From NCBI GenBank assembly GCA_035315065.1, contig DATFYM010000002.1:5949-69948 (forward strand): a DNA stretch of 64,000 bases, written 5' to 3'. This stretch comes from Terriglobia bacterium (GTDB lineage Bacteria > Acidobacteriota > Terriglobia > UBA7540). How positions within the stretch are numbered: position 1 is the first letter of the stretch; every line of letters begins with the position of its first letter. The notes under the pieces were generated by a model. The model did no database searches, was not told the DNA's origin, and saw only the letters and a program-made list of their open reading frames with translations. The position numbers and the translations under genes were made by a program. This document shows, in pieces, positions 5,886 through 59,933 of this stretch.

Positions 5886-5975
5886 AAGTTTCTCGCAAAG
5901 GCGCAAAGGCGCGCACAGTCGCAAAGAAGAAACCCTTTGCGTGCTTTGCGAACTTTGCGGCTTTGCGAGAAACTT
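5886..5975. repeat. Word-periodic palindrome, GCAAAG class
   Basis: AAGTTTCTCGCAAAGGCGCAAAG.. pairs with ..CTTTGCGGCTTTGCGAGAAACTT. A-run/T-run flanks. Lies between the radical SAM and Memo/AMMECR1 genes. Confidence 0.85.
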
Positions 5976-6148
5976 TTTGCTTTTCAACTTTCTTCACACG
6001 TTCTGAGGTCTCACCGTGCGTGAAGAGCCGCACCACCCATTTGTAAGCCAGGTCAGCCGGGTGTTTTTGCGCGCGTCCTATGGCCGAACGCTGTTCGGCC
6101 CTACGATTCTCCTTGCTGCCGACTGCCTTCTGCCTTCTGCCTACTTCT

Positions 6149-7414
6149 TCACGACCACAAGCCCGGAATCACCTGCTGGCAGTACTCGCACTTGCCTTTT
6201 CTCACGTGCATCTGGCCTACGGTGAACCCCTGGCGCTCCACCACGATACGGCGGCACTTGGGGCAGTAAGTGTTTTCCGCGGGGTGGCCGGGCACGTTAC
6301 CGATGTAAACGTAGTGGAGACCCTCGGCATCGGCGATGGCCTTGGCCCGTTCCAAGGTCTCCACCGGCGTCTCGGGAAGGTTGGTCAACAGATACTCGGG
6401 ATGGAAACGCGTGAAGTGCACGGGGACGTCAGGGCCCAAGTCGGACTTCACCCACCGTGCCATGGCCTTGAATTCCGCGTCTCCGTCGTTCAAGGTCGGG
6501 ATCACCAGGTACACGATCTCGGTCCACGTTCCCTGTTTCTTGATCGTCACCAGGGTGTCGAGCACGGGCTTCAACTCGCCGTTCACGACTTCTTTGTAGA
6601 ACTTCTCTGAAAATCCCTTCAGGTCTATCTTGATGGCGTCTACGGTCCGGCACCAGGTTTTCAGGGGATCTTGTTGGATGTACCCTCCGCTGATCACCAC
6701 GCTTTTGACGCCGACATTGTGTCCGGCCTCCGCCGCGTCCATCACATACTCGTAGAAGATCACGGGCTCGCTATAAGTGTAGGCGATCGACGGGCACTGG
6801 TACTGTTTCGCCAGCGACGCGAGATCGCGGGGCGGTACGTAGTTGCTCTTGACCTGCTCCGGCCGCACCTGGGAGATCTCCCAGTTCTGGCACATCTTGC
6901 AGTTGACGTTGCAGCCCGCCGTGGCGATGGAGAAGGCCATGGTACCGGGCTGGAAATGGAACAAGGGCTTCTTTTCAATGGGATCGACGTGCGCGGTCAC
7001 CACCCGTGAATGGACCAGGCTGTAGTATTTGCCCCCGCGGTTCTCCCGCGCGCCGCAGTAGCCCCGCTCGCGATCGTCGATCACGCACTCGCGCGGGCAA
7101 AGCTTGCACTTGGTCTTCTTGTACGCGAGCTTCTCGTAGAACTTCGCTTCGACGATGAATTGCGAATCGTCAGCCGCCGCCGTGCCCGTTGGGATGGGAC
7201 TTGTTGGGATGGGACTTGCCCCACCGCCGGAGGCAGGCCCGGAAAGAAGTCCTATCGGGATCGCGCTCGCCGACGCCAGCGCACAACCGGCCAGGCAGGG
7301 AAGCGCGGCGGCTTTCAGGAACGCCCTGCGATCAACCCCCGAGTTCTGATCCCAAGTCAGGAACCGGCGGTCGCCGATCTTCAACCCCTGCTTTTCGGTG
7401 GCTTCGTTCCTCAT
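6149..7414 (-). CDS. AmmeMemoRadiSam system radical SAM enzyme with twin-arginine/lipobox-type N-terminus
   Basis: CNVNCKMC (CxxxCxxC) cluster motif. N-terminus DRRAFLKAAALPCLAGCALASASA. Adjacent to the Memo/AMMECR1 gene. The ATG at 7414 lies inside a repeat element, and a TTG at 7384 is an alternative start. Confidence 0.85.
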   Translation of the reverse strand: MRNEATEKQGLKIGDRRFLTWDQNSGVDRRAFLKAAALPCLAGCALASASAIPIGLLSGPASGGGASPIPTSPIPTGTAAADDSQFIVEAKFYEKLAYKKTKCKLCPRECVIDDRERGYCGARENRGGKYYSLVHSRVVTAHVDPIEKKPLFHFQPGTMAFSIATAGCNVNCKMCQNWEISQVRPEQVKSNYVPPRDLASLAKQYQCPSIAYTYSEPVIFYEYVMDAAEAGHNVGVKSVVISGGYIQQDPLKTWCRTVDAIKIDLKGFSEKFYKEVVNGELKPVLDTLVTIKKQGTWTEIVYLVIPTLNDGDAEFKAMARWVKSDLGPDVPVHFTRFHPEYLLTNLPETPVETLERAKAIADAEGLHYVYIGNVPGHPAENTYCPKCRRIVVERQGFTVGQMHVRKGKCEYCQQVIPGLWS

Positions 7415-7500
7415 CTTTTCCTATCGACTTCCTTTATTTTCATACAAATCGGTGGCTTCGTTTTTCAAAAAGCTCTCAGCTTTCAGCTCTCAGCTGTCAG
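7396..7500 (+). repeat. Element A copy (two GGTGGCTTCGTT cores ~54 nt apart plus CAGC-word tail)
   Basis: CGGTGGCTTCGTTCC at 7396 and CAAATCGGTGGCTTCGTTTTTCAAAAAGCTCTCAGCTTTCAGC at 7445. Core 1 overlaps the first codons of the radical SAM ORF. Confidence 0.85.
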
Positions 7501-7810
7501 TTTTCAGTTCCAGCCCCTTTCCCGCTTGACTTTCCCTCGTTAATACCGCCCCTCCCGGGTTTTCCACCGTCCGTGCTCCCCGATCTGCGAGGCCGGTCAA
7601 TAGTAAGGACTGGTTGGCGATCCGAAAACGCCAAATGGGTTCGTATGGAAAACCCAACCCAAGATGTCCTTTGCTGCCAATACAGATTTGGGTTCGGTCC
7701 GATTTTTTCGCCTTTCTTTCCGGATTTCTCGATATATTTGCTGACGTCATGCATCCACTCTGTCCAGTACAACCTCGTTACTCTTATGGTAAAATAGGCG
7801 GAAAGAATAA

Positions 7811-7909
7811 GAGGTTTCTCGCAAAGCCGCAAAGTTTAGGAGGAGTCGCAAAGAAGCAACTTCTTCTCTTTGTTTGCATTGCGAACTTTGCGCCTTGGCG
7901 AGAAACTCC
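7811..7909. repeat. Word-periodic palindrome, GCAAAG class
   Basis: GAGGTTTCTCGCAAAGCCGCAAAG.. / ..CTTTGCGCCTTGGCGAGAAACTCC. Sister of the 5886 copy. Confidence 0.85.
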
Positions 7910-8044
7910 TTTGTTCTCCCCATTTCTTCACACCTTCTCAGTTTTCAGCCTTCAATCACCCAACCCCCACTTCTCACTCTCATTTCCAAGGTCAAGCCTG
8001 GGCGTTCTCTTTACCGAGAACTGATAACTGAGAACTGAAAACCC

Positions 8045-12215: not shown

Positions 12216-12309
12216 GCCGCCCTATCAGCGCCTGCCCATTTGCCCTTTGCCCTTTGCCCTTTGCCATTTGCCTTCCTGCCCGCTGCCTACTGCCGACCGC
12301 TTTCCGCCC

Positions 12310-12425
12310 TCTAACGGTGGCTTCGTTCCTGACTTTTCCACCGCCCGATCCTTCGTTTTCAAGCAAATCGGTGGCTTCGTTTTTGAAAAGCTATCAGCTT
12401 TCAGCCGTCAGCCATCAGCTTCCTG
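12310..12425 (+). repeat. Element A copy
   Basis: TAACGGTGGCTTCGTTCCTGACTTTTCCACCGCCCGATCCTTCGTTTTCAAGCAAATCGGTGGCTTCGTTTTTGAAAAGCTATCAGCTTTCAGCCGTCAGCC. Confidence 0.9.
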
Positions 12426-12478
12426 CCATTTGCCTTTTGCCATTTGCCTTTTGCCTTTCTTTTCTCTTTCCTGTCGGC

Positions 12479-15250: not shown

Positions 15251-15935
15251 CTGATCCCGCTAGCGCCGGGTTGCGACCGCAAGTCCTGCGTTCTGCATCA
15301 CCGCCGCCACCAGGAAACCCCCGATTAGTATCCCGCCCGCGACCGCATACAGCCGGGTCGCTGGGGCCTGCGCCAGCCCCGCGCCGCCAATGCCGCCGGC
15401 GACGGTGAACTCGGCCCATTCACATGCCGCCCAAGCTGCCAACATGTCCCCGCCCAGCGGGAACATCGAGAACAGCCCAATGTTTCCAGCTACTGCGAAC
15501 ACAAGTCCAAACGCGGCGCCGAACCTGGCGCCCGCCGCCGCACCACGGATGCCCAGGTGCCGCTCCAACCACAGCAGCAACGCAGTCAACAGCAGAAAAG
15601 AACCGTAACCGAAAGGGATTCGCCGAAACATCAGCGCAGGCGGCAAGAACACCGGCCCGGGGTTGACGTAGTACCGCGACAGAAGACCGGCACTGAACAG
15701 GAAGTCTACACCGAGGAATGCGATCCACATCGCGCCGGCGATGGCGACCAGGCGTCCCATAGTCAGCCGCAGTTCATTGTCATGTGCTGTCGTCGGGACG
15801 TTCATGCACTTCCCTCTGGTTTAAGAAGCTCTCAGCTCTCAGCCATCAGCTATCAGCCATCAGCTTCCTGCCTTTTGCCTTTTGCCCTTTGCCTTTCTTT
15901 TCTCTTCCTGCCGACTACCTGCTGCCGACCGCTTT
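15240..15935. repeat. Segmental duplication, copy 2
   Basis: See copy 1. A direct repeat bracketing the oxidoreductase and DUF4386 genes. Confidence 0.9.
15260..15805 (-). CDS. Hypothetical polytopic membrane protein (181 aa), paralog 2
   Basis: Near-identical to 11060..11605, at an offset of exactly 4200 nt. Confidence 0.6.
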   Translation of the reverse strand: MNVPTTAHDNELRLTMGRLVAIAGAMWIAFLGVDFLFSAGLLSRYYVNPGPVFLPPALMFRRIPFGYGSFLLLTALLLWLERHLGIRGAAAGARFGAAFGLVFAVAGNIGLFSMFPLGGDMLAAWAACEWAEFTVAGGIGGAGLAQAPATRLYAVAGGILIGGFLVAAVMQNAGLAVATRR

Positions 15936-17502: not shown

Positions 17503-17670
17503 GGTTGCACCCGTCAGCCCAGATCGGTTAGCCAGGCACACGAATGCCCGACGCGATGCCCTAAAGTTAAACCCTTGACAAAAGTGCCGTCAGTATCACC
17601 GGTCACCCGTGCCTGTGACTAACGTCACTGCGGGTCAGGTCCTTAGTTGGATAAGTTCCAGATGGCCGTT

Positions 17671-17815
17671 AAGAATTGACGGTTGCAGATTGACGATTGG
17701 AAGAGGACCACCAATGACGATTGTCTGGGCCTATTGAAGGCCGCCGCGGCCTGCTTCTCTTTCTTTTTCAGTCGTCAATCGTAAATCTGTCCCGCCAGGC
17801 GGGATCAATTCTTCG
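17671..17815. repeat. Word-periodic palindrome, ATTGACG class
   Basis: AAGAATTGACGGTTGCAGATTGACGATTGG ... CAGTCGTCAATCGTAAATCTG ... GATCAATTCTT. Confidence 0.8.
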
Positions 17816-20939: not shown

Positions 20940-21044
20940 AACACAGAGGCACCGAGACACAGAGAAGAGAAAGAGAATCACATGGACATGTCGCTTGGTT
21001 TCCGACGTTCCCCATTTTTCTCTGTGCCTCCGTGTCTCTGTGTT
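20940..21044. repeat. Word-periodic palindrome, CACAGAG class
   Basis: AACACAGAGGCACCGAGACACAGAGAAGAGAAA / TTTTTCTCTGTGCCTCCGTGTCTCTGTGTT. The right arm lies inside the tracked lipoprotein ORF. Confidence 0.85.
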
Positions 21045-23706: not shown

Positions 23707-23770
23707 GAATTGACGATTGCCGATTGGTCCCGGAGTGAAGCGAAGGCTAGACGATTGGAAGAGAAGAAAT

Positions 23771-23877
23771 GAATCCACAGATTACGCAGATTTCACAGAC
23801 CGATGATGATAAGGGAAGAAAAGCGCGTTGTTCTTTTCTTGTCCTATATCTGTGTAATCTGCGAAATCTGTGGATTG
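23771..23877. repeat. Word-periodic palindrome, AATCCACAGATTACGCAGAT class
   Basis: GAATCCACAGATTACGCAGATTTCACAGA / TCTGTGTAATCTGCGAAATCTGTGGATTG. Confidence 0.9.
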
Positions 23878-23899
23878 CCTTCCGCTCACCAGCCAAGCT

Positions 23900-25018
23900 A
23901 TGACGAAACTCGATGTTCCCCTCCAGCTCGCTCCTGCATTCCAGCCCAAAATCTGGGGCCGGCGTGATCTCGCGCCGCTCTATCAGCGGCCAGGGATGTC
24001 TCGAAGGCGGCGCCGCGCCGATGAGGGTGTTGCCGTTGCGCCTGCGATCGCGACCATGGAACGCATCGGCGAGGCGTGGCTCACGGGTGACGAGGCGCGC
24101 TTCATGAACGGCCCGGTTTCCGGGCTAACCCTCGGCGAAGTTTCCCGGCAATACGGCGCGGAGCTGCACGGCGAGTCCTGGAAGGGCGATCGCTTTCCTG
24201 TCCTGGCGAAATTCATTTACACCAGCGACTGGCTCTCGGTGCAGGTCCACCCCGATGACGCGTACGCCGCCGTGCACGACCCCGGCAACGTCGGCAAGTG
24301 CGAGGGGTGGTACATCCTCAAGGCGGACCGTGGCGCGAGCTTCCTCCTGGGGCTGAAGCCGAAAACCAGCATCGAGGCTCTGCGGGCCGCGTGTGAGCGC
24401 GGGCTCTCGAAGAAACTGCTCCGGCTGTTTCACCCCAAGGCCAACGAGGCGGTTTTCGTGCCGCCGGGTACGGTCCACGCCCTCGGGCCCGGCCTTGTCC
24501 TTTTTGAAGCGGAGCAGAACTCAGATCTCACTTATCGCCTGGATGATTTCGGCCGGCTGGGACTCGACGGCAAGCCTCGGCCTCTGCACCTCAAGAAGGG
24601 AATGGAAGTGGCCCGCCTTGACTCTCCGGCCCACCGCGCTTTGCCGCAGGTGGTGCTGAGCGAGCCTTATGGGTCGCGCCGGTTGGTCGTGGCCTGCCGT
24701 ACCTTCGCAGTGGAAGAGTTGACGTTGCGGAAAGCGGCGTCGTTTGCCGGGTCGGCGGTGCGCGTCGAAGCCCTGGCGGTGGTGGCGGGCGACGGTCGCG
24801 TCGAAACCGGCGCCGGATGGCTGGGTTATCGCACGGGCGAAACGTGGCTGATTCCGCCCGCCACCACAAGCTACCGGTTGGTTCCGCGGGTGCCGACGCG
24901 GTTGCTGAAATTCTACGTGCCCGACCTCGCCCGCGATTTCGTTCAGCCGCTGACGGCGCGGCGTGGCGGCGCCGCGAAACTTAGCAAAATCGTCTTTCTT
25001 ACGGATCAAGAAAAATGA
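23900..25018 (+). CDS. Type I phosphomannose isomerase-like protein
   Basis: LSVQVHPDD and PPGTVHALGPG cupin motifs. Start trimmed to the ATG at 23900 because upstream codons are a palindrome arm. Confidence 0.75.
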   Translation: MTKLDVPLQLAPAFQPKIWGRRDLAPLYQRPGMSRRRRRADEGVAVAPAIATMERIGEAWLTGDEARFMNGPVSGLTLGEVSRQYGAELHGESWKGDRFPVLAKFIYTSDWLSVQVHPDDAYAAVHDPGNVGKCEGWYILKADRGASFLLGLKPKTSIEALRAACERGLSKKLLRLFHPKANEAVFVPPGTVHALGPGLVLFEAEQNSDLTYRLDDFGRLGLDGKPRPLHLKKGMEVARLDSPAHRALPQVVLSEPYGSRRLVVACRTFAVEELTLRKAASFAGSAVRVEALAVVAGDGRVETGAGWLGYRTGETWLIPPATTSYRLVPRVPTRLLKFYVPDLARDFVQPLTARRGGAAKLSKIVFLTDQEK

Positions 25019-25118
25019 ATCCGCAGATTACGCAGATTTCACCGAGTAAGAGCTCAACGACTTAAAGCGGCGCTCGATCGTTCTTGAAATCTGTGGAATC
25101 CGTGCAATCTGTGGATTC
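25017..25118. repeat. Word-periodic palindrome, AATCCACAGATTACGCAGAT class
   Basis: GAATCCGCAGATTACGCAGATTTCA / TGAAATCTGTGGAATCCGTGCAATCTGTGGATTC. Starts inside the stop codon of the isomerase gene. Confidence 0.9.
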
Positions 25119-25130
25119 CCTCTTCTCTTT

Positions 25131-26219: not shown

Positions 26220-26228
26220 CGAGTGAAG

Positions 26229-26378
26229 GTAGACAGTAGACGGTAGACTGTAGACGGGGAAGACGGAGCGTCGCGGGTTGGCTCCTTGCCTTTTGTCTAA
26301 CTGTCCCTCTGCCAGGGTGCGCAACTTGTGGCGGGCGTACCGTCTTCCCCGTCTACGGTCTACTGTCTACTGTCTACC
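26229..26378. repeat. Word-periodic palindrome, GTAGAC class
   Basis: GGTAGACAGTAGACGGTAGACTGTAGACGGGGAAGACGG / CCGTCTTCCCCGTCTACGGTCTACTGTCTACTGTCTACC. Loop is ~72 nt. Confidence 0.9.
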
Positions 26379-27779: not shown

Positions 27780-27789
27780 TCAAGAGACA

Positions 27790-27988
27790 GAATCCACAGA
27801 TTACGCAGATTTCACGGATTACAAAAAGAGGAGTCAGGAGACAGGAGTCAGGAGTCAGCATGAAAGACCCATCTTCGTTCTCTTTCCTGTTACCTATCCC
27901 ATCTTCGTTCTCTTTCCCGTCTTAAGTTTGTCTCTTGTCTCCTGACTCCCTTTTTGTAATCCGTGGAATCTGCGTAATCTGTCGATTC
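27790..27988. repeat. Composite two-class palindrome (CACAGATTACGCAGAT plus AGTCAGGAG words) with a 20-nt direct repeat in the loop
   Basis: About 69-nt left arm and ~59-nt right arm. The loop carries CCCATCTTCGTTCTCTTTCC twice (27868, 27898). Confidence 0.9.
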
Positions 27989-28409: not shown

Positions 28410-28411
28410 AG

Positions 28412-37909: not shown

Positions 37910-37999
37910 TGACGATCGACCTTCTTTCCGGGGTGTGGCTACCTCGCATGAACCCCCCTCGGGGCTGACTGAGCCTCCGTTGGGCTGAGTATAACACCG

Positions 38000-38125
38000 A
38001 AGAAGTCGAGAGTCGAAAGTTGAAAGTCGAAAGTAAAGAACCCCTCTTCTCTCGACTTCCCTTCACCACTTGAGGTTTCGGGGTTCGGTACTTTCGACTT
38101 TCAACTCTCCACTTTCGACTTCTTC
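38000..38125. repeat. Word-periodic palindrome, AGTCGAAAG class
   Basis: GAAGAAGTCGAGAGTCGAAAGTTGAAAGTCGAAAGT / ACTTTCGACTTTCAACTCTCCACTTTCGACTTCTTC. The right arm overlaps the last codons of the CDS at 38101. Confidence 0.9.
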
Positions 38126-39463: not shown

Positions 39464-40393
39464 ATGAAAAAGAGACCTTCGACGCTGTGGTTCACGACGG
39501 CGCTTCTGGCAGCGCTGATGTCGGCGTTGGCCGCAACGCTCGGCGCCCGCCAGTCTTCGCCGGCTCCGGCGGCCACGCCCGCGTCATCCAAGCAGTCCAG
39601 GGCCACCAGGAGTGCGCAGGCGCAGGAACCGGCCCGGCCGCCGCTCGCCAGTAACCCGCAAGATCCGGAAACAATGGAGATCACCAAGCGCGACCTCAAT
39701 AATCTCTTGCGCCGCTATCCTCAAGCCAACGCCACCCTTCGCCTCGACCAGTCGCTCGTCGCCGACCAGGAATACCTGGACCATTACCCTGACCTCCGAG
39801 ATTTCCTCAAGGCGCATCCCGAGGTGGTGGCTAACCCAAGTGCCTTTATCGAGAGCAGCTTTAGAGTCGATTCGCAACAAGGAGGTGACCCCGTGTTTCT
39901 CCGATTTATGAATGATCTTTGGCCGTTTTTGGTTTTTCTGGTAGTGACGGCCGCGCTGCTCTGGATCCTCAAGGTGATTCTGGAAAACCGCCGCTGGGGC
40001 AAAATGGCGAAAGTCCAATCGGAGGCCCACGCCAAGCTGCTGGAGAAATTCGCCACTAACCAGGAGTTGCTGGCCTATATGCAGACGGAAGCGGGCAAGC
40101 GGTTCCTGGAGTCGGCACCCATCCCTGTTGATCTGGAACAAAGGCCGCGCATGAGCGCGCCGTTTGGGCGTATCCTCTGGTCGGTGCAGTTAGGGTTTAT
40201 ACTGGCGCTGGCAGGATTGGGATTGATCTACGTGCGCGGTTACGCGCCCGATGTCGCCGAGGAGTTGCTGGTGTTCGGCACTCTGGCCCTGACGCTGGGA
40301 TTGGGTTTTGTTCTTTCGGCGCTCGTCTCCTTTGGGCTCTCCAAGCACCTGGGGCTGCTGACCAACGCGCCCGTGAAATCATTGAGTGATTGA
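39464..40393 (+). CDS. Hypothetical membrane protein with signal peptide
   Basis: MKKRPSTLWFTTALLAALMSALAATLGA leader and 3-4 later TM helices. Upstream of the ECF sigma gene. No family recognised. Confidence 0.55.
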   Translation: MKKRPSTLWFTTALLAALMSALAATLGARQSSPAPAATPASSKQSRATRSAQAQEPARPPLASNPQDPETMEITKRDLNNLLRRYPQANATLRLDQSLVADQEYLDHYPDLRDFLKAHPEVVANPSAFIESSFRVDSQQGGDPVFLRFMNDLWPFLVFLVVTAALLWILKVILENRRWGKMAKVQSEAHAKLLEKFATNQELLAYMQTEAGKRFLESAPIPVDLEQRPRMSAPFGRILWSVQLGFILALAGLGLIYVRGYAPDVAEELLVFGTLALTLGLGFVLSALVSFGLSKHLGLLTNAPVKSLSD

Positions 40394-40528
40394 GCCATTG
40401 GAGAATTGAGTTATTGGGTGATTGCAACATTGAAGTATATTGGGCCATGAGTTGTTGAGCCATTGAAAACAAGAAAGAACAACCTACTTCTTCAATGGCG
40501 CAATGACCGATGGCTCAATGACTCAATT
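40378..40528. repeat. Word-periodic palindrome, CATTGAG class
   Basis: TCATTGAGTGATTGAGCCATTGGAGAATTGAGTTATTGGGTGATTG ... CTTCAATGGCGCAATGACCGATGGCTCAATGACTCAATTC. Confidence 0.8.
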
Positions 40529-40539: not shown

Positions 40540-41244
40540 ATGCGGGAAATCGCCATCACCGAAATCGGGCAGGCGCAGGCGGGCGCGGCGGAGTCCGAAG
40601 AGACCTTTCACATGGACGAGGAGAGCTTCCGGGGGTTCTACGAGCGCACGGCCCGTTCCCTGTGGGCTTACCTTTCCCGCGCCTCCGGCGACCCGTCCCT
40701 GGCCGACGATCTGCTTCAGGACACCTACTATCGCTTCCTGCGCGCCGCCTTGCCGGAAACCACTGAGGCCCATCGCAAGAACTATCTTTTTCGCATCGCT
40801 ACCAATCTGCTTCGCGACCACTGGCGGCGGCACAAACCCACGGAGCCCCTCACGTCGCCGGAATCGGGGTCTGAACCCGGCTCGGAATCGGAGCAAGGAA
40901 GGGACTTCGAGGCGGCCGACCGCGCCGCCGATCAAATCCAGCAACAGTCGGACTTGGGTCGCGCGCTCAATTACCTCAAGCCGCGCGAGCGCGAGATGTT
41001 GTGGATGGCTTACGTCGAGGGCTTCAGCCACAAGGAGATCGCCGACACGGTGGGTTTGAAAGCGGGCAGTATCCGCCTGCTGCTGTTCCGCGCGCGGCAC
41101 AAGCTGGCGGGGTTGTTGAAGAGGAGTAAGGAAACGGAAGCCAGAAGCCAGAAGTCAGAAGTTAGAATGAAGAGCGGAATAGGGGATATTCTGGCTCCTG
41201 ACTTCTGTCTCCTGTCTCCTTTTGTCGGGAAGGTGGAGTCATGA
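40540..41244 (+). CDS. ECF-type RNA polymerase sigma-70 factor with repeat-derived C-terminal tail
   Basis: Region 2 YLFRIATNLLRDHWRR. Region 4 REMLWMAYVEGFSHKEIADTVGLKAGSIRLLLFRARHKL. Stop overlaps the next ATG (ATGA). Confidence 0.85.
   Translation: MREIAITEIGQAQAGAAESEETFHMDEESFRGFYERTARSLWAYLSRASGDPSLADDLLQDTYYRFLRAALPETTEAHRKNYLFRIATNLLRDHWRRHKPTEPLTSPESGSEPGSESEQGRDFEAADRAADQIQQQSDLGRALNYLKPREREMLWMAYVEGFSHKEIADTVGLKAGSIRLLLFRARHKLAGLLKRSKETEARSQKSEVRMKSGIGDILAPDFCLLSPFVGKVES
41135..41219. repeat. Word-periodic palindrome, AGTCAGAAG class, inside the 3' end of the sigma-factor ORF
   Basis: GGAAGCCAGAAGCCAGAAGTCAGAAGTTAGAAT / ATTCTGGCTCCTGACTTCTGTCTCCTGTCTCC. Confidence 0.85.
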
Positions 41245-44473: not shown

Positions 44474-44497
44474 TTGTGCGTCCTCCGTCAAGAAATC

Positions 44498-44590
44498 GGG
44501 AGTAGGGAGCAGGGAGTAGGGAGTAGGGAAAGAAGGAATAAGGCAAAGGCCTGATCTTTCCCTACTCCCTACTCCCCACTCCCTACTCCC
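44498..44590. repeat. Word-periodic palindrome, GTAGGGA class, between padR and the ADOP gene
   Basis: GGGAGTAGGGAGCAGGGAGTAGGGAGTAGGGAAAG / CTTTCCCTACTCCCTACTCCCCACTCCCTACTCCC. Confidence 0.9.
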
Positions 44591-44592
44591 TA

Positions 44593-44949
44593 TTAAGCGG
44601 GCCGCATCACCCGCGCGATAGCGCCCACCAGTTGATTCCACTTCGACGCTTCCGCGGCCAACTGTTTCCTCCCCGCCGGGGTCAAGCGGTAGTACTTGAA
44701 TTGCCGGTTCCGATCCTTGGCCATCTCCCACTTCGCCGCCACCAAGCCCTTCCGCTCCAGGCGATGCAAGGCCGGATAAAGCGACCCGTGCTCGATGCGT
44801 AGTACTTCGTCTGTCGTGCTCTGGATGTGCCTGGCGATCTGGTGGCCATGGGCGGGGCCGAATACGAGCGTGCGCAGGATGAGCATATCCAGCGTGCCTT
44901 GCAACAACTCCGTACGGCCGGAAGTGTCTTTGCTCATGATGGTAGACAT
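44593..44949 (-). CDS. PadR family transcriptional regulator
   Basis: GTLDMLILRTLVFGPAHGHQIARHI and GSLYPALHRLERKGLV. Directly upstream of the ADOP gene. The ATG at 44937 is an alternative start. Confidence 0.9.
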   Translation of the reverse strand: MSTIMSKDTSGRTELLQGTLDMLILRTLVFGPAHGHQIARHIQSTTDEVLRIEHGSLYPALHRLERKGLVAAKWEMAKDRNRQFKYYRLTPAGRKQLAAEASKWNQLVGAIARVMRPA

Positions 44950-46061: not shown

Positions 46062-46143
46062 GGGTCGAAAGCTAAAAGTCGAAAGCAGAAGCCGGGCGTT
46101 CTTGGCTTTCGACTTCTCGACTTTCGACCTTCAACTCTTTTTT
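46062..46143 (+). terminator. Word palindrome (GTCGAAAG words) followed by a T-run; likely terminator after vapBC
   Basis: Arms GGGTCGAAAGCTAAAAGTCGAAAGCAGAAGCC / GGCTTTCGACTTCTCGACTTTCGACC, then CTCTTTTTT. Confidence 0.6.
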
Positions 46144-49936: not shown

Positions 49937-49937
49937 A

Positions 49938-50025
49938 GGTCATTGAGTCATTGGGTGATCGGGTGACTGAGTGTTGCAAGAAGGGTTCTTGCGAGTTTCG
50001 AGTTTCGACTTTCGACTTTCGATGA
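49938..50025. repeat. Juxtaposed word arrays (CATTGAG class then TTTCGAC class) around a short hairpin
   Basis: GGTCATTGAGTCATTGGGTGATCGGGTGACTGAGTG, then TTGCAAGAAGGGTTCTTGCGA, then GTTTCGAGTTTCGACTTTCGACTTTCGATG. Confidence 0.8.
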
Positions 50026-50036
50026 GGAGTTGAGCC

Positions 50037-51050
50037 ATGATTGACCTGAAGACCACCTACCTCGGTCTGGACCTGAAAAACCCGCTGGTGGCGTCGCCCT
50101 CACCGCTGTGTGAGGAGATCAGCAACATCCGCCAAATGGAGGACGCGGGCGCGGCTGCCGTGGTGCTGCACTCGCTCTTTGAGGAGCAGATCACGCTCGA
50201 GAGTTCCCAGCTTGACGACAGCCTGGAGGCGGGCGCCGAGAGCTTTGCCGAGTCCCTGAGCTACTTCCCGGACATGACCAGCTACAACCTTGGTCCGGAG
50301 GGTTACCTCGAGCACGTCCGCAAGGCCAAAGCGGCGGTGGACATTCCCGTCATCGCTAGCCTCAACGGCGTTTCCACCGAAGGCTGGATCAAGTACGCCA
50401 AGAAGATCGAAGAGGCCGGGGCCGATGCACTAGAGCTCAACATCTATTATCTGCCTACCGACCCGGACATGACCGCGGCCGAAGTCGAGCAGGTCTATTA
50501 CGACTTGGTCGCCGAGGTCAAGACTCGGCTCCGAATTCCGCTGGCGGTCAAGATCGGCCCCTATTTCAGCTCCATGGGCAACGCCGCGCAGCGCCTGGAT
50601 GAATCGGGCGCCGACGCGCTGGTGCTCTTCAACCGTTTCTACCAGCCCGATTTCGATCTGGAGAACCTCGAAGTGGTGCCTAACCTCATTTTGAGCACTC
50701 CGCACGAACTGCTGTTGCGCCTTCACTGGGTGGCCATCATCTATGGGCATATTCGCGCCGATTTGGCGTTGACTGGCGGCGTCTATACCGCCGCAGACGT
50801 GCTGAAGTCCATGATGGCGGGGGCGCGTGTGGCCATGATGACCTCGGCCTTGTTGAGGTATGGCATCCCGCACCTGGAGATGGTGCGCCGTGACCTGGTG
50901 GAGTGGATGGAGAAGCACGAGTACGAGTCCATCCACCAGATGCAGGGCAGCATGGCGCACAAATCCGTCGCCGATCCTTCCGCGTTCGGCCGCGCCAACT
51001 ATATGAAGATGCTCAGTTCCTATACGCCGCGAGCCGTCAGCAAAAAGTAG
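50037..51050 (+). CDS. Dihydroorotate dehydrogenase-like TIM-barrel protein
   Basis: DHOD class 1-like pattern ([11 protein letters not shown].., ELNIY.., [11 protein letters not shown]). Directly downstream of PFOR. Confidence 0.7.
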
Positions 51051-51104
51051 GGAACAGGGAATAGGCAACCGCCGCGTCCTCTTGTCTCCTATTCCCTGTT
51101 CCCT
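51050..51104. terminator. Palindrome GGGAACAGGGAATAGG / CCTATTCCCTGTTCCC between convergent genes
   Basis: 16-nt perfect arms between the DHOD-like stop (51050) and the rapZ stop (51113). Confidence 0.6.
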
Positions 51105-51994: not shown

Positions 51995-51996
51995 AA

Positions 51997-52058
51997 AAAG
52001 GGAACAGGGACGATGCTTTCTGTTCCCTGTTCCCTGTTCCCTATAACCTGTTCCCTTT
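51997..52058. repeat. Word-periodic palindrome, CAGGGAA class
   Basis: AAAGGGAACAGGGACG / CTGTTCCCTGTTCCCTGTTCCCTATAACCTGTTCCCTTT, between hpf and rapZ. Confidence 0.85.
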
Positions 52059-52084
52059 CCATTCGTCACTCGTTACCGGGCTTC

Positions 52085-54158: not shown

Positions 54159-54349
54159 GAAGAAAGGAGACAGGAGACAGAACACAGGAGTCAGAATGAA
54201 AAAGAGCGCCTACTCTTAACTTCCACTTCCTCGCCGTTCTGGCGCCCGACGCCACTTCTGAACCCGAATCCTGAATTCCTTCTTCCTCTTATTCTGACTC
54301 CTGACTTCTGGCTCCTGACTCCTCCTCTTGACTCCTGACTCCTTCTTCA
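54159..54349. repeat. Word-periodic palindrome, AGTCAGGAG class, between lptB and rpoN
   Basis: GAAGAAAGGAGACAGGAGACAGAACACAGGAGTCAGAATG ... CTTATTCTGACTCCTGACTTCTGGCTCCTGACTCCTCCTCTTGACTCCTGACTCCTTCTTC. Confidence 0.9.
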
Positions 54350-55081: not shown

Positions 55082-57931
55082 TCATTGCGACACGCGATGC
55101 TTAGTGAGGGTGGGCGATTGATCACCTCCGTCCACATAGAGGCTATCATCGTGAATGAAGAAAGTCAAACGCTTGCCCGTAGTGAGCCCCCTTTGCTCGT
55201 CGTACACGATGGGTGGACCTCCCGTCAGCGTCACTTTACCCGTTGCCGCTAGATATTCGACGTGATCTCCCGTAGCCCGCCGCCCGGGCTCCTCCACGGT
55301 GACGTGCTCATCCGCCAGCACGTGATCGACCTCCGAACCCTCGTTCCCGGGCCCACTCTTCCCGCCGGCGGTCTTTGTAAAATAAACGTCCATCTTGTCA
55401 GCCTTCAAAGTCGTCTGCTCGGTCCGAAGCTCCACATGACCCCGGTAACTGGCCTTTTGGTCCTCGTCGAAATAGGTCAAACTGTCGGCGCGGATCGCGA
55501 CCGGCGCTGTCTTCGAGACCACCCGATCCTTGGATGCAACCGAAGCGGCTGGCGACGCTCGGGAGGCGGGTGGCGACGACGACCGAGCTAGACTCGACGT
55601 CAGCACTTGGCTCCCCGAGTTGAGCCGGCGCGTAACCCCGTCGTAGTCCAGGGAGGAGGACTCGATGAGATCGTGGTCGTGCCACGCCCTCACGTGACCC
55701 TGATAGTGAACCAACTGGCTGCGCCGCTCCACAACGACCTGGTCCGCCAGCACGTTGGTGGCGCTGGCGAGAGCGCTGGCGCTGGCGACCGGGGGGCCGG
55801 CGACGCCGGCATTTCCCTTAGTCGGCTGCCCCTTCTCGGTGATCGGTGCCGGGCTTTGGAAATGGGTTGATTGGACCTTGCCCAGCCCTTCGCCAGTCTC
55901 GGTATCCAGGTGCCACAAGATCCGATCGGCAGCCATGCGGGTTGCGGCGTCCCAGAGCCGAGGCTGGCCGCTCAACGTCAAAACCTGAGACTCCGCAGAG
56001 TACTGTGCCTTGGCCGCAGAACTCTCACGCTCGCCGTTGCTATAGCGGAAATTGCCCGATTGTTCCAAGCTGCGGAGATCGCCGCTGGAAGCGTCAAAGA
56101 CGGCAGCCAAGCGGTCGGAAAAGCTCTCCTCAATCACCAAGGGCGCCAACGGCGCCGGCGGCCGCGGTGGCGCGCCGGCTGGAGACCGCCCGACGCCGGG
56201 CGCGGGGCTGGGCGTGTAGACAATGTGGGTTCCTTTGATCCCATCGAGAGTTCGCAACCGGTTTTGTTCATTGAAGGCCATGAGAAACTGGCCGGCGGTG
56301 ATCACCTGCTCGCCCCGCTTGGCATCCTCGGAGTTCAGCACGAGTTTGCCGGCCCCGACTGTCTGCGCCTCTCTCAGGCTGCGGCCGTCGGGTCTAAAGC
56401 CGAAGAGCATCTCGGACGCCGTCAAGGTCTCCGTCTTCACCGGCGGTCGTGCAGCAGCGGGAGGCGGAAGGCGGTGGGCAGGAGGCAGAAGGCAGAAGGC
56501 AGAAGGCAGAAGGCCGCTGCCAACCGCTTCTTGCTGACCGCTCTCTACCCTCTGCTGGCTGCCAACTGTCGGCTGCCAACTGACTTCTGCCGAAAGCTGA
56601 CTGCTTTCTGCCCTCTGCCGACTGCCAACTGCCGACTGCCGACTGCCGACCGCCTCGTCACTGGCCACAGACCTGAATATGAACCTGACGTTCCCGGAGG
56701 CGTCCGCTTTCGCGGGCTCGGGATGATGTCCGGCCGAGAAGATAACGTCGAGTTGCTGTGCCTCAAAATCGCTCGGCTCGCCCGGCCGTCCCTGGGGCAG
56801 TGACTCGCCCTCGACGCCGTCCTCTGCAACCAAATGACGAATCTCGGCGGTGGCCGGATTAAAGTCCGCCACCAGGCGGGGCGTTCTGCCGGTGAGCACG
56901 CTGGACGTTGAATCGCTCGAGAAATGAACGTCGCCTTCCAGGATAGCCTGCGTCGGGCGATTCTGGCCGTCCAGAAGAACCGTTCCGCCGGCGCCCGCCA
57001 ACTTCCACCCACTCTGGCTGAGCTCGACGGGGCCATCCAGCGTCAAGTCGTTGGATTCCTTCTTGTAAAGCAAATGGCTGGCAACCAATCGGGTGATCCC
57101 GGGTTCAGCCACGGCATTCGTAGCGCCGGGCTTTAGCCCGGCATCTTCAGCAGCACTTTCGGTGGCTGCCGGCCTTAGTCCGGCATGTGCCGCCCCTTCG
57201 CTGCGCTCAGGGCGGGCTCTAAAGGGCGTCGCTACAGGTGTAGTCTCCGTGCGGAGGTCCATCGCCACGTCTTTCTTCAGCTCCAGCCAGCCATCGCGGG
57301 TGGCATAGGTCATGCCCACCGCCGAGCCAGACGCCGGACCAATGCGAAACCGTACCGGCGCGTCCGTTATCGCCAAAGACTTCTCCTGATCGAAGTGAAC
57401 TCCCGAGGTCTCAAGGAACACCGGTTGTTGCCCGTGCAGGCTTCTCCCTGGCAAAAGACCTGGCCGGGCGTTCAGTTCAATCTCCACCTTGCCCGGGCTG
57501 GTGAAATCGCCGGAATGCGAGCTGTATTCGGCGCGCTGGGTGCGAAGCGTGTCATGACGAGTACCGGTCTTCCCGTAGATTTCCACATACACTTGTTCGA
57601 GGACGCTCGCCCCACCCGCGTTGAGGGCTTGCGTACGCGCCGCCTGGATCTTGAAGACCTGCCGGCCTCCGATTGAGCGGGTGAAGGTGAAACCGGAAGC
57701 CTGCTGGTCGACATTACTTGGTAACTCTACCGACGCGGGAGGCTTGCTTTCCGGGCGCGCCTTCTTCGCGATGTAGACCGCAACGATTGTCACGATGGTG
57801 ACAGCCAGCGCACCCAACACCATCAGGGTGATCCAGCGTTTGCGGCGCTGGGCCGCCGGGCCGATGACTGGTCTTCCCGAGTTGACTGTCGCGCCTTCCG
57901 TCGAGAGGGCCGCTTTATCCATTGAGGACAT
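55082..57931 (-). CDS. 949-aa LptC/LptA (OstA)-like periplasmic bridge protein with N-terminal TM anchor and repeat-derived inserts
   Basis: Occupies the lptC-lptA slot upstream of lptB. Single TM WITLMVLGALAVTIVTIVAVYI. Family assignment rests mainly on synteny and OstA-like beta-rich segments. Confidence 0.6.
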   Translation of the reverse strand: MSSMDKAALSTEGATVNSGRPVIGPAAQRRKRWITLMVLGALAVTIVTIVAVYIAKKARPESKPPASVELPSNVDQQASGFTFTRSIGGRQVFKIQAARTQALNAGGASVLEQVYVEIYGKTGTRHDTLRTQRAEYSSHSGDFTSPGKVEIELNARPGLLPGRSLHGQQPVFLETSGVHFDQEKSLAITDAPVRFRIGPASGSAVGMTYATRDGWLELKKDVAMDLRTETTPVATPFRARPERSEGAAHAGLRPAATESAAEDAGLKPGATNAVAEPGITRLVASHLLYKKESNDLTLDGPVELSQSGWKLAGAGGTVLLDGQNRPTQAILEGDVHFSSDSTSSVLTGRTPRLVADFNPATAEIRHLVAEDGVEGESLPQGRPGEPSDFEAQQLDVIFSAGHHPEPAKADASGNVRFIFRSVASDEAVGSRQSAVGSRQRAESSQLSAEVSWQPTVGSQQRVESGQQEAVGSGLLPSAFCLLPPAHRLPPPAAARPPVKTETLTASEMLFGFRPDGRSLREAQTVGAGKLVLNSEDAKRGEQVITAGQFLMAFNEQNRLRTLDGIKGTHIVYTPSPAPGVGRSPAGAPPRPPAPLAPLVIEESFSDRLAAVFDASSGDLRSLEQSGNFRYSNGERESSAAKAQYSAESQVLTLSGQPRLWDAATRMAADRILWHLDTETGEGLGKVQSTHFQSPAPITEKGQPTKGNAGVAGPPVASASALASATNVLADQVVVERRSQLVHYQGHVRAWHDHDLIESSSLDYDGVTRRLNSGSQVLTSSLARSSSPPASRASPAASVASKDRVVSKTAPVAIRADSLTYFDEDQKASYRGHVELRTEQTTLKADKMDVYFTKTAGGKSGPGNEGSEVDHVLADEHVTVEEPGRRATGDHVEYLAATGKVTLTGGPPIVYDEQRGLTTGKRLTFFIHDDSLYVDGGDQSPTLTKHRVSQ
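56478..56650. repeat. Word-periodic palindrome-like element (GGCAGAA / CTGCCGA words) embedded in frame in the 949-aa Lpt-like ORF
   Basis: GCAGGAGGCAGAAGGCAGAAGGCAGAAGGCAGAAGGCC ... CTGCCCTCTGCCGACTGCCAACTGCCGACTGCCGACTGCCG. The same words occur intergenically at 6110-6145 and 12985-13020. Confidence 0.8.
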
Positions 57932-57941
57932 CCGTGATTCA

Positions 57942-58012
57942 GAGCAGTCGAAGAGTCGAAGGTTGAAGGTCGAAAAGCTGAAGAGCCCTACTCTTCAACA
58001 TTCGACTTCTTC
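57942..58012. repeat. Word-periodic palindrome, AGTCGAAG class, between recJ and the Lpt-like ORF
   Basis: GAGCAGTCGAAGAGTCGAAGGTTGAAGGTCGAAAAGCTGAAGAG / CTCTTCAACATTCGACTTCTTC. Confidence 0.85.
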
Positions 58013-59830
58013 TTACTGCACTCGAAAGTCCTTGAGCACGAGTTGTAGCGACGCCAGCCCCTGGTAGACATTCTCGTCCAGGGTGAATGCCGCCGCAAGC
58101 TCGTGCCCCTCCGTCAATCCCGCCAAGGCGGGACCTTGATCCGCTAAGCCCCACCCCAGAGCATCGAACGAGTTCGATCCGACCGCACTGGCAGCGCCGG
58201 CCGGTCTGGTTGCACTGGCCGCACTGCCCCCACTATATTGAGCCAGTCTTAGTTTTAGATGCCGTTCTTTGAGGATGCGGGGCGGCGAAACCAGCCGGAG
58301 TCCGTCGGCCACGAAGACCGGCGTCGGATTGCCGAAGCCGTAGGGTTCGAGCAGGTTGAGGGCGGCATACAGATCGCGATTGAGATCGGCGAAGCTCACC
58401 CGGGCATCGACGCGCTGGGTCGGCTCAAGATCCTCGGGCGAGAGGACGGCACGAGCGTGACTTTCCAGGGCGGCCTCAAGCTCGGGAATGCGGTCGGCGG
58501 CCAGAGTGAAGCCGGCGGCCTGAGCGTGCCCGCCGTAACGCTGAAGCAGCCGGTCGGCGCTGGCGAGGGCATCGAGCAGGTGGAACCCCCGAATCGACCT
58601 CCCGGACCCCTGGCCGACCCCGTTCTCGACGCCGATCACCACCGCCGGCCGGTTGGTGCGCTCGACCACGCGCTGCGCCACGATTCCGATGACGCCGCGA
58701 TGCCAACCCTCTCCCGCGAACACCATGAAGTAACGCGAGGCCCTCTCCGGCTCCTGCTCCAGGCGCGCCAGAATCTCTTTAACGATGTGCTCTTCCACTT
58801 GCTGACGCTCGGTGTTCAGGCGGTCGAGCCGCTCGGCAATGGCGCAGGCTTTCGCCGCGTCCGGCGTGGTGAAGAGTTCGATCACGTCGCGCGCGTCCTC
58901 CATGCGTCCGGCGGCATTGAGGCGCGGCGCGATTCGGAACCCGACGTCGCCCGCCGTCACGGGCCGGTTGCCGAGGCCGGAGACCTCCAGCAGTGCCCGC
59001 AGGCCGGGATGGGCCCGCCTGGCGGGGTCCGAAAGGCTTGCGAGCCCCAACCGGGTGATGACGCGGTTCTCACCCACCAGCGGCACTACGTCAGCAATGG
59101 TGCCGATGGCGACGATCTTGAGATAGGACTCGAGAAGGCGCGGCGAGGGCCCCGCTCCTGCCTGTTCCCTGTTCCCTGTTCCCTGCTCCCTCAAGAGCGC
59201 CTGCGCCAGCTTGAACGCCACTCCCACGCCGGCGAGGTTTTTCTCCGGATACGCGCAGTCGGGACGCTTCGGATTCAGGATGGCGCACGCCGGAGGCAGG
59301 CGGCTAGCCCCGCCTGGGCCCGGCAAGTGGTGATCGGTGACGATGCAGTCGACACCCAGGTCGCGGGCGCGGGCGATCACCTCGTGCTCGCGGATGCCCG
59401 TATCAACGCTCAGCACCACGCGGTAACCGTCGGCGGCCGCTCGCTCCACCACCGGCACCCGCATGCCGTAGCCGTCGGTCAGCCGGTGGGGAACGTAGGT
59501 GTCGACGCTCGCGCCCATCGACCGCAGCACGGTGAGCAGCACCACCACCGACATGGTGCCGTCGACGTCATAGTCGCCGTAGATCAGGATCTTCTCGTGC
59601 GCCGCCACGGCTCGCCGCAGCCGCTCCACCGCCTTGCCCATGTCGGCCATGCGGAAGGGATCGTGGAGGTGGTCCAGGCGCGGATGGAGGAAGCGATCGG
59701 CAGCCGCGGGATCCTCCAATCCGCGCGCCGCCAGCAAGCCGGCCACCAGCGGCGGAATGGCTAGTTCTCTAGTTAACCGGGCCGCCGCTCCCGCCCGCGC
59801 GGGGTCGGCTTGGGGAAGCAGCCAGCGCAT
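58013..59830 (-). CDS. recJ: Single-stranded-DNA-specific exonuclease RecJ
   Basis: DHH motifs DYDVDGTMS and VTDHHLPG, plus GGHAQAAG. Start trimmed to MRWLLPQADP. Confidence 0.9.
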   Translation of the reverse strand: MRWLLPQADPARAGAAARLTRELAIPPLVAGLLAARGLEDPAAADRFLHPRLDHLHDPFRMADMGKAVERLRRAVAAHEKILIYGDYDVDGTMSVVVLLTVLRSMGASVDTYVPHRLTDGYGMRVPVVERAAADGYRVVLSVDTGIREHEVIARARDLGVDCIVTDHHLPGPGGASRLPPACAILNPKRPDCAYPEKNLAGVGVAFKLAQALLREQGTGNREQAGAGPSPRLLESYLKIVAIGTIADVVPLVGENRVITRLGLASLSDPARRAHPGLRALLEVSGLGNRPVTAGDVGFRIAPRLNAAGRMEDARDVIELFTTPDAAKACAIAERLDRLNTERQQVEEHIVKEILARLEQEPERASRYFMVFAGEGWHRGVIGIVAQRVVERTNRPAVVIGVENGVGQGSGRSIRGFHLLDALASADRLLQRYGGHAQAAGFTLAADRIPELEAALESHARAVLSPEDLEPTQRVDARVSFADLNRDLYAALNLLEPYGFGNPTPVFVADGLRLVSPPRILKERHLKLRLAQYSGGSAASATRPAGAASAVGSNSFDALGWGLADQGPALAGLTEGHELAAAFTLDENVYQGLASLQLVLKDFRVQ

Positions 59831-59868
59831 GTGTTCATTGTATCGCGAGCGAGGCCCCAGCAGGTCAG

Positions 59869-59933
59869 AAGAATTGACGATTGACGATTGCAAGACAAGA
59901 AATGAATCCGCACATTTCGCAGATTACACAGAT
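59869..59933. repeat. Two adjacent half-arrays (ATTGACG class, CACAGATTACGCAGAT class) upstream of recJ
   Basis: GAAGAATTGACGATTGACGATTGCAAG and GAATCCGCACATTTCGCAGATTACACAGAT. Only a weak partner lies near 60030-60058. Confidence 0.7.

Follow-up and report, generated by a model that had tools for sequence, protein, structure and literature searches.

Dispersed hairpin elements with slippage-remodelled microsatellite arms in a Terriglobia bacterium, probable hairpins of transcript ends

A locus rich in word-array palindromes

The window analyzed here is the whole 64,000-nucleotide (nt) stretch of contig DATFYM010000002.1 from a Terriglobia bacterium (positions 5,949 to 69,948, forward strand). 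It has a G+C content of about 60%, and its genes include rpoN, hpf, rapZ, lptB, recJ, PFOR, lepA, and ispDF. The nearest named RpoN relatives are uncultured Terriglobia (Acidobacteriota) at no more than 76% identity, and several soil and peat metagenome assemblies hold contigs that are near-identical to the window; metagenome loci and contigs compared with it carry L-numbers (L001, L089, and so on). Between its genes lie dispersed hairpins with microsatellite arms, long palindromes in which each arm is a tandem array of a short word, and these hairpins are remodelled by slippage. Retained almost solely in the space that follows stop codons, the elements keep a fixed polarity from purine to pyrimidine and are partly common across phyla.

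A repeat finder returned 42 inverted pairs in the window, mostly with arms of 7-9-nt words, and an ungapped inverted-repeat scan gave 22 clusters against 0, 0, 0, 1, and 2 in five dinucleotide shuffles, in which no cluster was periodic. An earlier note, made from the sequence alone, had described such palindromes; they are present, and all of the word classes it listed were found where it had placed them. Arrays called by Tandem Repeats Finder comprise AGTCGAAAG, GGGAACA/GGGAGTA, AGGAGTC, CATTGAG, ATTGACG, CGCAAAG, CACAGAG, GTAGAC, and CTGCCGA words. When non-overlapping arrays of at least 2.8 copies are counted, 34 out of 45 have a period of 7 nt, six a period of 9, and two a period of 8. The window holds at least ten word classes, always as tandem arrays rather than single copies, and the arms are 20-70 nt long and not self-complementary. 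The 25-mer of the ACAGATT class is found as eight arms in the window (at most three mismatches; positions 23772, 23852, 25018, 27791, 27963, 29395, 29473, and 59905) and is absent from the shuffles.

Counts of gaps and array placement were made in the well-annotated stretch from 19 to 62 kb. There, 23 of 30 arrays sit in the 16% of the DNA that is non-coding, an approximately 18-fold enrichment. A word-array inverted repeat is present in about 19 of the 28 gaps of at least 48 nt, with other palindromes in three more, so that the original statement that nearly every gap holds one was too strongly worded. Placement at gene boundaries, also claimed at the outset, describes the arrays well in that they are overwhelmingly intergenic, with the exception of two array sites inside coding sequence, in an LptD_N-like gene and in recJ. 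The elements are listed in Table 1.

Long palindromes without tandem words lie at 30475-30576, 19064-19139, 30670-30778, and 21657-21729; they include two copies of a GTCATTCTGAGCGAAGCGAAGAATCTC type, one with perfect 27-nt GC-rich arms (GGAGCGCGGGCGTCCCGCCCGCTCTTG), and one of a ACCCTCTCCCCCAAAGGGG type. The divergent gap upstream of lepA holds two of these, and similar ones occur in relatives, for example downstream of hpf in L009.

Table 1. Word-array elements of the window, in window coordinates
Element	Coordinates (strand)	Context and remarks
CGCAAAG(G)-word palindrome	5877..5984, arms 5877-5908 / 5953-5984	between Memo/AMMECR1 and radical-SAM genes (both - strand)
(GGCAGAA)x5 single array	6107..6142 (-)	6 nt past radical-SAM stop codon; small ordinary hairpin after it
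(AGCTTTC)x5 unpaired array	7471..7507 (+)	adjoins a copy of the 23-nt GGTGGCTTCGTT element
CGCAAAG-word palindrome	7809..7911, arms 7809-7836 / 7884-7911	
Three unpaired pyrimidine-rich arrays, TGCCCTT, AGCTATC, TGCCTTT	12233..12458 (+)	
AGCTATC and TGCCTTT arrays	15827..15896 (+)	direct copy of 12389-12458
ATTGACG-word palindrome, GGAAGAG / CTCTTTC collars	17670..17790 (approximate)	gap called divergent, between two DUF362 genes
CACAGAG-word palindrome	20940..21044, arms 20940-20966 / 21018-21044	6 nt past Fer4 gene stop codon
Composite: ATTGACG array, GAAGAGAAGAA collar, ACAGATTWC arms	23709..23887, arms 23761-23820 / 23828-23887	member of the 133-nt family
ACAGATTWC-word palindrome	25018..25126	overlaps PMI stop codon; ends 4 nt short of next start
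GTAGAC(N)-word palindrome	26228..26378	39-nt arms, 95% complementary; both mismatches G.U on sense strand
Nested composite, outer ACAGATTAC arms, inner AGGAGTC arms	27785..27993	between convergent genes
GAAAGTC-word palindrome	28401..28555	3 nt past ECH stop codon, - strand
ACAGATTWC-word palindrome	29386..29506	
AAATCAG / AGAAGTC-word palindrome	34198..34315	centre nearly loop-less; 3' array longer than 5'
ATCAGC / GCTGAYG palindrome, weaker	34900..34990 (approximate)	between convergent genes
CATTGAGN (8-nt word) palindrome	36740..36878	
AGTCGAA-word palindrome, GAAGAAG / CTTCTTC clamps	37999..38125	46-nt arms; 3' arm overlaps final ECH2 codons
ATTGAGYN (8-nt word) palindrome	40381..40527	upstream stop codon overlapped
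GAAGCCA / GAAGTCA palindrome	41122..41220	5' arm has one-unit (7-nt) polymorphism vs L001, L002, L095
GGGAGTA-word palindrome	44494..44594	40-nt arms, 93% complementary; overlaps PadR stop codon
AGTCGAAAG-word hairpin	46062..46136 (start approximate)	upstream of PFOR gene
Two non-complementary arrays, GTCATTGA type and GTTTCGA type	49937..50030 (+)	flank a small hairpin
GGGAACA-word palindrome	51049..51104	between convergent genes; DHODH stop codon within 5' arm
GGGAACA array and short partner	51996..52060	between hpf and rapZ
AGGAGTC / AGGAGAC palindrome	54161..54343	spans whole lptB-rpoN gap, stop codon to start codon
GGCAGAA / CTGCCGA palindromic arrays	56461..56656	inside LptD_N-like gene; in-frame variable low-complexity linker
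GTCGAAG-word hairpin	57947..58012	begins immediately after RecJ stop codon
(GGGAACA)x4 single array	59161..59191 (-)	inside recJ; translated as GNREQGT-type repeat
Composite: outer ATTGACG / CGTCGAT arrays, AAGACAAGAAATG collar, one ACAGATT-type arm with decayed partner	59873..60050	

Copying and remodelling of the elements

A unit of 133 nt, consisting of a GAAGAA collar, ACAGATT arms, and a non-repetitive centre of about 50 nt, is present at six loci (four copies of 133 nt, one of 132, and one of 127, the window member lying at 23761-23887). Identity among the copies is 76-88% over the whole unit and 65-90% in the centre. Between their flanks, neither blastn nor tblastx found anything in common, nor did tblastn with the proteins that neighbor the window member, which rules out orthology of the copies. 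Identity of this kind at six loci is beyond the reach of independent slippage; thus, whole elements have been copied to new sites, and for this one family the REP-like behavior suggested by the earlier note is borne out. Several of the copies carry outer ATTGNCG arrays that vary in unit number, and the element at 59.9 kb has the same composite order. The order of nesting is not fixed: at 27.8 kb the ACAGATT arms enclose AGGAGTC arms, and at 23.8 and 59.9 kb they lie within ATTGACG arrays, suggesting insertion into, or growth around, pre-existing hairpins. Smaller shared parts include a collar common to the ATTGACG palindrome at 17.7 kb and the element at 23.8 kb, an 18-nt loop motif common to the copies at 28.4 and 38.0 kb, and a 13-nt loop motif common to those at 5.9 and 7.8 kb.

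Slippage could be seen directly. Over 21 kb compared between the window and L001, L002, and L095 (three contigs from two samples), a single GAAGCCA unit differs, at 41137-41161, with no substitutions, and unit slippage therefore outpaces point mutation; this accords with the slippage origin proposed at the outset. The polymorphic 7-nt unit falls in the 3' end of the frame of an extracytoplasmic function (ECF) sigma factor (40540-41244, compared with 497-1129 in L001), an open reading frame (ORF) of 234 amino acids (aa) in the window that is called as 210 aa in other assemblies, so that slippage in the arm changes the predicted C-terminus of the sigma factor. A separate comparison with L005 gave 35 substitutions, all within 300 nt of the PFOR gene (49240-49537), and identity elsewhere, two nearby hairpins included; this difference looks like a recombination tract.

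Orthologous gaps were compared in relatives with 96%, 91%, and 84% RpoN identity, as the earlier note had advised, and most of them keep a hairpin while its copy number or word class changes. The lptB-rpoN gap carries AGGAGTC words in three genomes and GGTAGAC/GGTATAT words in the fourth, and the hpf-rapZ gap carries GGGAACA words in differing copy numbers in three and GTGGCTA in the fourth. In the PFOR-DHODH gap, the CATTGAG and CTTTCGA arrays of the window are replaced in the 96% relative by a GTCGGCA array between conserved flanks. The rpoN-hpf gap is 52 nt in three genomes and 228 nt in L089, where the extra array-bearing DNA begins directly after the TGA, giving a filled site in L089 and an empty site elsewhere. 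Relatives with 84-96% RpoN identity thus differ in the word class at the same gap. The DNA downstream of hpf holds word hairpins of various classes in array-rich relatives, and in array-poor ones either an ordinary stem-loop that has a T-rich tail or other palindromes.

These data bear on the possibility that each element is made in place, by slippage from a local seed together with template-switch inverted duplication, with the recurring classes reflecting convergent selection. Slippage is the fastest mutation that we observed, the arrays draw on a broad range of words in varying unit numbers, and copies of the same class in the window mostly have unrelated loops, all of which fits such a process; a slippage bias towards heptamers has also been proposed earlier (Mrazek 2007, as cited in PMC4679880). 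The 133-nt element with its non-repetitive centre at six non-homologous loci, the identical 25-mer in contigs of four phyla with 36-67% GC (among the matches listed), and the swap of a whole array cassette between conserved flanks in relatives with 96% RpoN identity all argue against it. In-place formation is already contradicted for the ACAGATT family, and we consider it improbable as a general account.

Placement, polarity, and a putative role at transcript ends

The elements are tightly packed against genes. In 25 co-directional gaps, the median distance from stop codon to hairpin base is 4 nt, as expected from the earlier remark that hairpins start near or overlap stop codons, and the median from hairpin to next start codon is 7 nt. 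A stop codon followed by GAAGAAG and then an array is a recurring motif. The GAAGAA clamps noticed previously proved to be a real feature, as 11 of the 22 clusters carry a GAAGA-type collar on their 5' edge, compared with a 6% background. Convergent gaps in the annotated stretch are occupied by an element in three out of four cases, and the sole divergent-called gaps with an element are the two at 17.7 and 59.9 kb. Of 29 non-redundant array pairs drawn from the window and its relatives, 26 have the purine-richer arm on the 5' side and one has it on the 3' side. Because the structure is a palindrome, this polarity is identical on both strands, so that a transcript of either strand enters the element through the purine arm and leaves it through the pyrimidine-rich arm.

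In 62 non-redundant paired copies of the 9-mer class, arm pairing is 95-100% Watson-Crick save at two degenerate positions of the word CRCAGATTN, the R of CRC and the ninth base, where mismatches are common; seven of the nine positions are nearly invariant. With mismatches confined in this way, an arm looks like a degenerate CRCAGATTN array and not like a sequence adjusted to its partner at each base. This pattern would be expected if the words were binding sites for a protein (a cold-shock, nucleoid, or DnaA-like 9-mer binder) or formed non-B DNA or G-quadruplexes, with palindromy secondary. Conservation of the 9-mer class across phyla fits such a function, as do the binding of CspB to heptamer repeats (as cited in PMC4679880) and the likeness of the G3 tracts in GGGAACA and GGGAGTA to the G-quadruplex repeats of Xanthomonas (PMC4692102). 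However, the 237 heptamer arrays counted fall into 119 distinct word classes without a common core, and the inverted layout and polarity found in all classes point to pairing and not to one protein. We regard binding or non-B structure as quite unlikely, even less probable than in-place formation. A single word core or single binding protein can be set aside given the 119 heptamer classes. G-quadruplexes as a general explanation are likewise out, as G3 tracts are confined to the GGGAACA and GGGAGTA classes, and GAAAGTC, AGGAGTC, ACAGATTAC, CATTGAG, ATTGACG, CGCAAAG, and GTAGAC have none. The likeness of the terminal word ATCCACA in the 9-mer class to a DnaA box is a reading by eye that does not extend to other classes.

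Folding suggests that the structure may act as RNA. In 20 of the 25 co-directional gaps, the sense strand folds more stably than the antisense strand (mean -5.4 kcal/mol, Wilcoxon p = 0.0009), with 98 G.U pairs compared with 50. Canonical terminator-like sites are not in excess in the window (23 compared with 17 +/- 4), and the consensus scan did not flag the palindromes. The short GC-rich stem with a directly following U-tract that characterizes an intrinsic terminator was not found in them. Rfam families were also considered as an identity for the palindromes, and none covers them; only Acido-Lenti-1 scored above threshold, and the sub-threshold hits are chance matches to miRNA-precursor hairpins.

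On balance, we lean towards reading these loci as dispersed hairpin elements with microsatellite arms, remodelled by slippage, that probably serve as transcript-end hairpins. Whole elements, comprising collar, arms, and loop, are copied to unrelated intergenic sites, new elements also appear nested inside the loops of older ones, and slippage then adds or removes word units, so that changes in copy number and arm length outpace point mutation. In a transcript leaving a gene, the element would fold as a long hairpin whose 3' arm is rich in pyrimidines, and this hairpin may serve as the 3'-end hairpin of that gene or as an intercistronic hairpin. Such a hairpin could terminate transcription without a U-tract, as the pyrimidine-rich 3' arm would give a weak RNA:DNA hybrid in either direction, and/or block 3' exonucleases, and it may insulate the next gene, so that the elements would stand in for canonical terminators in this genome. 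The terminator or RNA-stability idea of the earlier note is therefore retained in part: placement after stop codons, occupancy of three of four convergent gaps, and ordinary hairpins at the corresponding place in array-poor relatives are consistent with it, and the terminator or insulator role itself is what we infer from them.

Several observations weigh against this reading. A U-tract after the hairpins is absent, as had been noticed before, with a T fraction of 0.31 in the 10-nt tails. Many hairpins lie 0-7 nt from the next start codon, which would leave no room for a promoter if the hairpins truly terminate. The copies in the divergent-called gaps at 17.7 and 59.9 kb and the two array sites in coding sequence mean that not every copy can be a terminator. 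Random coding segments show a similar fold asymmetry (60% better in the sense direction, -2.2 kcal/mol), so that the strand asymmetry is partly compositional, and a strict count of wobble pairs against A.C mismatches in the best ungapped arms gave 26 versus 17 (p = 0.22); these two controls weaken the asymmetry, and selection at the RNA level is therefore only suggestive. With regard to dispersal, loops of same-class copies in the window are mostly unrelated, no transposase or mobilizing gene was identified among the 10 unannotated window ORFs or the window gene calls, and no transposase is enriched among the 148 genes neighboring 120 copies of the 25-mer among the matches listed, where the commonest families are generic methyltransferases (four) and PDDEXK_3 (three). 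No target-site duplication was seen by eye in the flanks that were read, a systematic search not having been made.

A serious rival is that the elements are selfish or neutral, of no use to the host, and seen where they are tolerated, in post-stop intergenic DNA and flexible linkers. Both coding array sites read in frame as 7-residue repeats (SAVGSRQ..., LLPSAFC..., GNREQGT...), and array lengths differ in each relative (the L087, L089, and L091 orthologues of the LptD_N-like protein and RecJ); this variation shows that the proteins tolerate and inherit the arrays as variable linkers. The rapid turnover of copy number and class at orthologous gaps, the many word classes, the missing U-tracts, and the non-significant strict wobble test all suit such passengers, as does the finding of no regulatory role for the Xanthomonas arrays by Rehm et al. 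(PMC4692102). On the other hand, tolerance alone does not predict a 26:1 arm polarity, nor the near-complete Watson-Crick pairing outside degenerate positions in the 62 copies; most relatives keep some hairpin downstream of hpf, whatever its building material, and conventional terminators do not accompany the elements. We therefore hold the selfish or neutral reading to be possible, though on the doubtful side.

Known repeat systems and distribution across taxa

The closest precedent for the hairpins is the set of inverted GGGAATC arrays of Xanthomonas, where about 185 GGGAATC-type heptamer arrays include 70-75 pairs in convergent inverted orientation (Rehm et al. 2015, PMC4692102). Those arrays are about 90% intergenic, lie on average 28 nt from the upstream ORF, are rare between divergent genes, and vary between Xcc and Xac; no function was identified, and the authors favored G-quadruplexes (PMC4692102). 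The window arrays resemble them in consisting of tandem 7-nt units with degenerate positions, in being mainly intergenic and lying shortly after the upstream ORF ends (here at a median of 4 nt), in forming convergent inverted pairs with the G-rich or purine-rich array first that are rare in divergent gaps, and in varying in length and sequence between close relatives. They differ in that Xanthomonas has one word family, read as G-quadruplex-forming, whereas here there are ten or more classes, most without G-tracts, along with 8- and 9-nt words, nested composites, whole-element copying between loci, and one arm sequence that crosses phyla. Heptamers dominate long simple-sequence repeats in bacteria, and polymerase slippage has been proposed as the cause (Mrazek et al. 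2007, as cited in PMC4679880). The cyanobacterial short tandemly repeated repetitive (STRR) heptamers and the TAACTGA repeats of Beggiatoaceae (PMC4679880) are likewise intergenic tandem heptamers to which no function is assigned, with a patchy distribution among phyla that suggests horizontal spread and with arrays directly upstream of starts; they are mainly direct arrays of one or a few words, unlike the systematic inverted pairs anchored at stop codons found here.

Among mobile repeats, repetitive extragenic palindromic sequences (REP) and their REPIN doublets are also short, non-coding, abundant, intergenic just past genes and occasionally within them, and arranged as inverted doublets that form long hairpins at non-homologous sites; termination and mRNA stability roles have been proposed for them as well. 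The REP unit is in itself an imperfect palindrome of 20-40 nt marked by a conserved GTAG or CGTC tag, whereas the arms here are non-self-complementary tandem arrays of variable unit number, and GTAG is present solely within two word classes, GTAGAC and GGGAGTA. REP and REPIN are mobilized by REP-associated tyrosine transposases (RAYT, of the Y1 HUH kind), and in Acidobacteria terminal inverted repeat (TIR) families adjoin TIRYT genes (Di Nocera et al. 2013, PMC3733652). The earlier note advised looking for a RAYT gene elsewhere in the genome; no RAYT or TIRYT gene was found in the window or near 120 copies of the 25-mer among the matches listed. MITEs (miniature inverted-repeat transposable elements) such as pneumococcal BOX with its variable boxB units, Correia/NEMIS, and ERIC share with the present elements terminal inverted repeats, size conservation (at 133 nt for one family), copies in intergenic sites unrelated to one another, a variable-copy internal module, and hairpin transcripts, which are predicted here. 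The conserved internal sequence and size expected of MITEs are seen in the 133-nt subfamily, and the other window ACAGATT copies and most heptamer classes have unrelated loops. Further differences are that no target-site duplication was seen by eye, that no parent insertion sequence was found in the window or adjoining the copies, and that the variable modules here are 7-9-nt microsatellite units in both arms.

Intrinsic and bidirectional terminators are likewise hairpins just past stop codons and are present between convergent genes, and the purine-rich (GAAGAA) 5' flank and pyrimidine-rich 3' side of the elements mirror the A-tract and U-tract of bidirectional terminators. Their stems are 5-15 bp, compared with repeat-built stems of 20-70 bp here that are not especially GC-rich, enclose loops of 20-120 nt, and lack a U-tract. 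DNA uptake sequences (DUS/USS) consist of one specific 9-12-nt word spread over the genome in very high copy and found in terminators as inverted pairs too, unlike the many tandem word classes of the window.

The window has 7 arrays per 10 kb; relatives of 84% RpoN identity or more have 5-8, those at about 75% have 0-6.5, and those beyond mostly 0-1, so that the feature is clade-enriched within Terriglobia. It is not lineage-specific, as had been supposed. The arm AATCCACAGATTWCGCAGATTKCAC is present exactly in at least 120 metagenome contigs of 36-67% GC from many biomes, and among the matches listed, contigs bearing the 25-mer have 4.8 word arrays per 10 kb. Three low-GC carriers were placed by exact protein look-up in Candidatus Desulfaltia (Desulfobacterales), Desulfobacteraceae, and Nitrospinota, and a Persicobacter (Bacteroidota) plasmid, the only real plasmid hit, has a 28-nt match between convergent genes. 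One family is thus common to Acidobacteriota and at least three other phyla, and inverted heptamer arrays as such were already described in Xanthomonas (PMC4692102). In the AT-rich Desulfobacterales contig, the layout is again a stop codon followed by the purine arm, the loop, and the pyrimidine arm, with a ribosome-binding site and a start codon after them; this contig also carries CGCAAAGG words, as does the window. No viral contig matched the 25-mer arm, which speaks against phage as a vector, and a search of a literature collection gave no match to the arm sequences or to those of the other palindromes. Low-GC contigs with the 25-mer arm (L108, L196, L137, L141, L189, L190, and L216) also bear conserved palindromes such as TTCCCACGCTGGAGCATGGGAAC and CCCCGCAGCTTGCTGCGGGG, which hints at a wider set of small hairpin repeats common to uncultured bacteria.

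The window holds further repeats and features. A 23-nt element, AATCGGTGGCTTCGTTTTTCAAA, has nine copies (at most three mismatches; none in shuffles), all on the + strand between 7447 and 16344 (sites 7447, 8101, 11020, 12174, 12366, 14340, 15221, 15998, and 16322). It usually lies within a unit of about 100 nt with a second GGTGGCTTCGTTCCTGA box, after which come pyrimidine-rich word arrays. The element has no Rfam match, and its likeness to a sigma-54-type promoter is only loose. A full-length Acido-Lenti-1 RNA (Rfam RF01687, 55.8 bits, E = 7e-10) lies at 16148-16193 (+), with word arrays and one copy of the 23-nt element on its flanks. The lower-GC stretch from 11 to 16 kb contains segmental duplications of 90-91% identity (15150-15851 and approximately 10950-11650; 8042-8165 and 12307-12430) that include paralogous genes for 181-aa hypothetical proteins (11060-11605 and 15260-15805). 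A 66-nt tandem repeat of three copies (83% matches, 62901-63107) lies inside a 689-aa ORF (61785-63854) with a weak PEP-CTERM end. At 43310-44473, a MacB/FtsX-type permease appears to be split into a MacB_PCD ORF of 315 aa and an FtsX fragment of 68 aa, just upstream of a complete paralogue of 490 aa; it may be a frameshifted pseudogene.

In conclusion, what is new here is a multi-class repertoire that saturates the intergenic space of one acidobacterium, a polarity rule, a slippage polymorphism seen directly, nested composites, dispersal of whole elements by copy and paste, and an identical arm in four phyla. We would tentatively go further, while giving the idea a low probability, and propose an unnamed, horizontally spreading class of microsatellite-armed hairpins. 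Its hallmark would be the arm AATCC-(CRCAGATTN)x3, with CGCAAAGG, AGCTATC, and ATTGACG as companions, at post-stop sites in Acidobacteriota, Desulfobacterota, Nitrospinota, Bacteroidota, and probably more. Such a class would be propagated in trans by functions not encoded beside its copies and would replace intrinsic terminators in saturated genomes.

The elements offer a natural system for the co-evolution of palindromes and microsatellites, for asking why heptamers dominate long bacterial repeats, and for 25-31-nt non-coding sequence that is common to four phyla without a visible transposase. Their arrays are hypervariable strain markers and a likely cause of breaks in metagenome assemblies, and gene callers misplace starts and stops inside them, several window ORFs running into arrays. 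If the hairpins are working terminators or insulators, terminator prediction and operon calling would fail for many uncultured soil and sediment bacteria.

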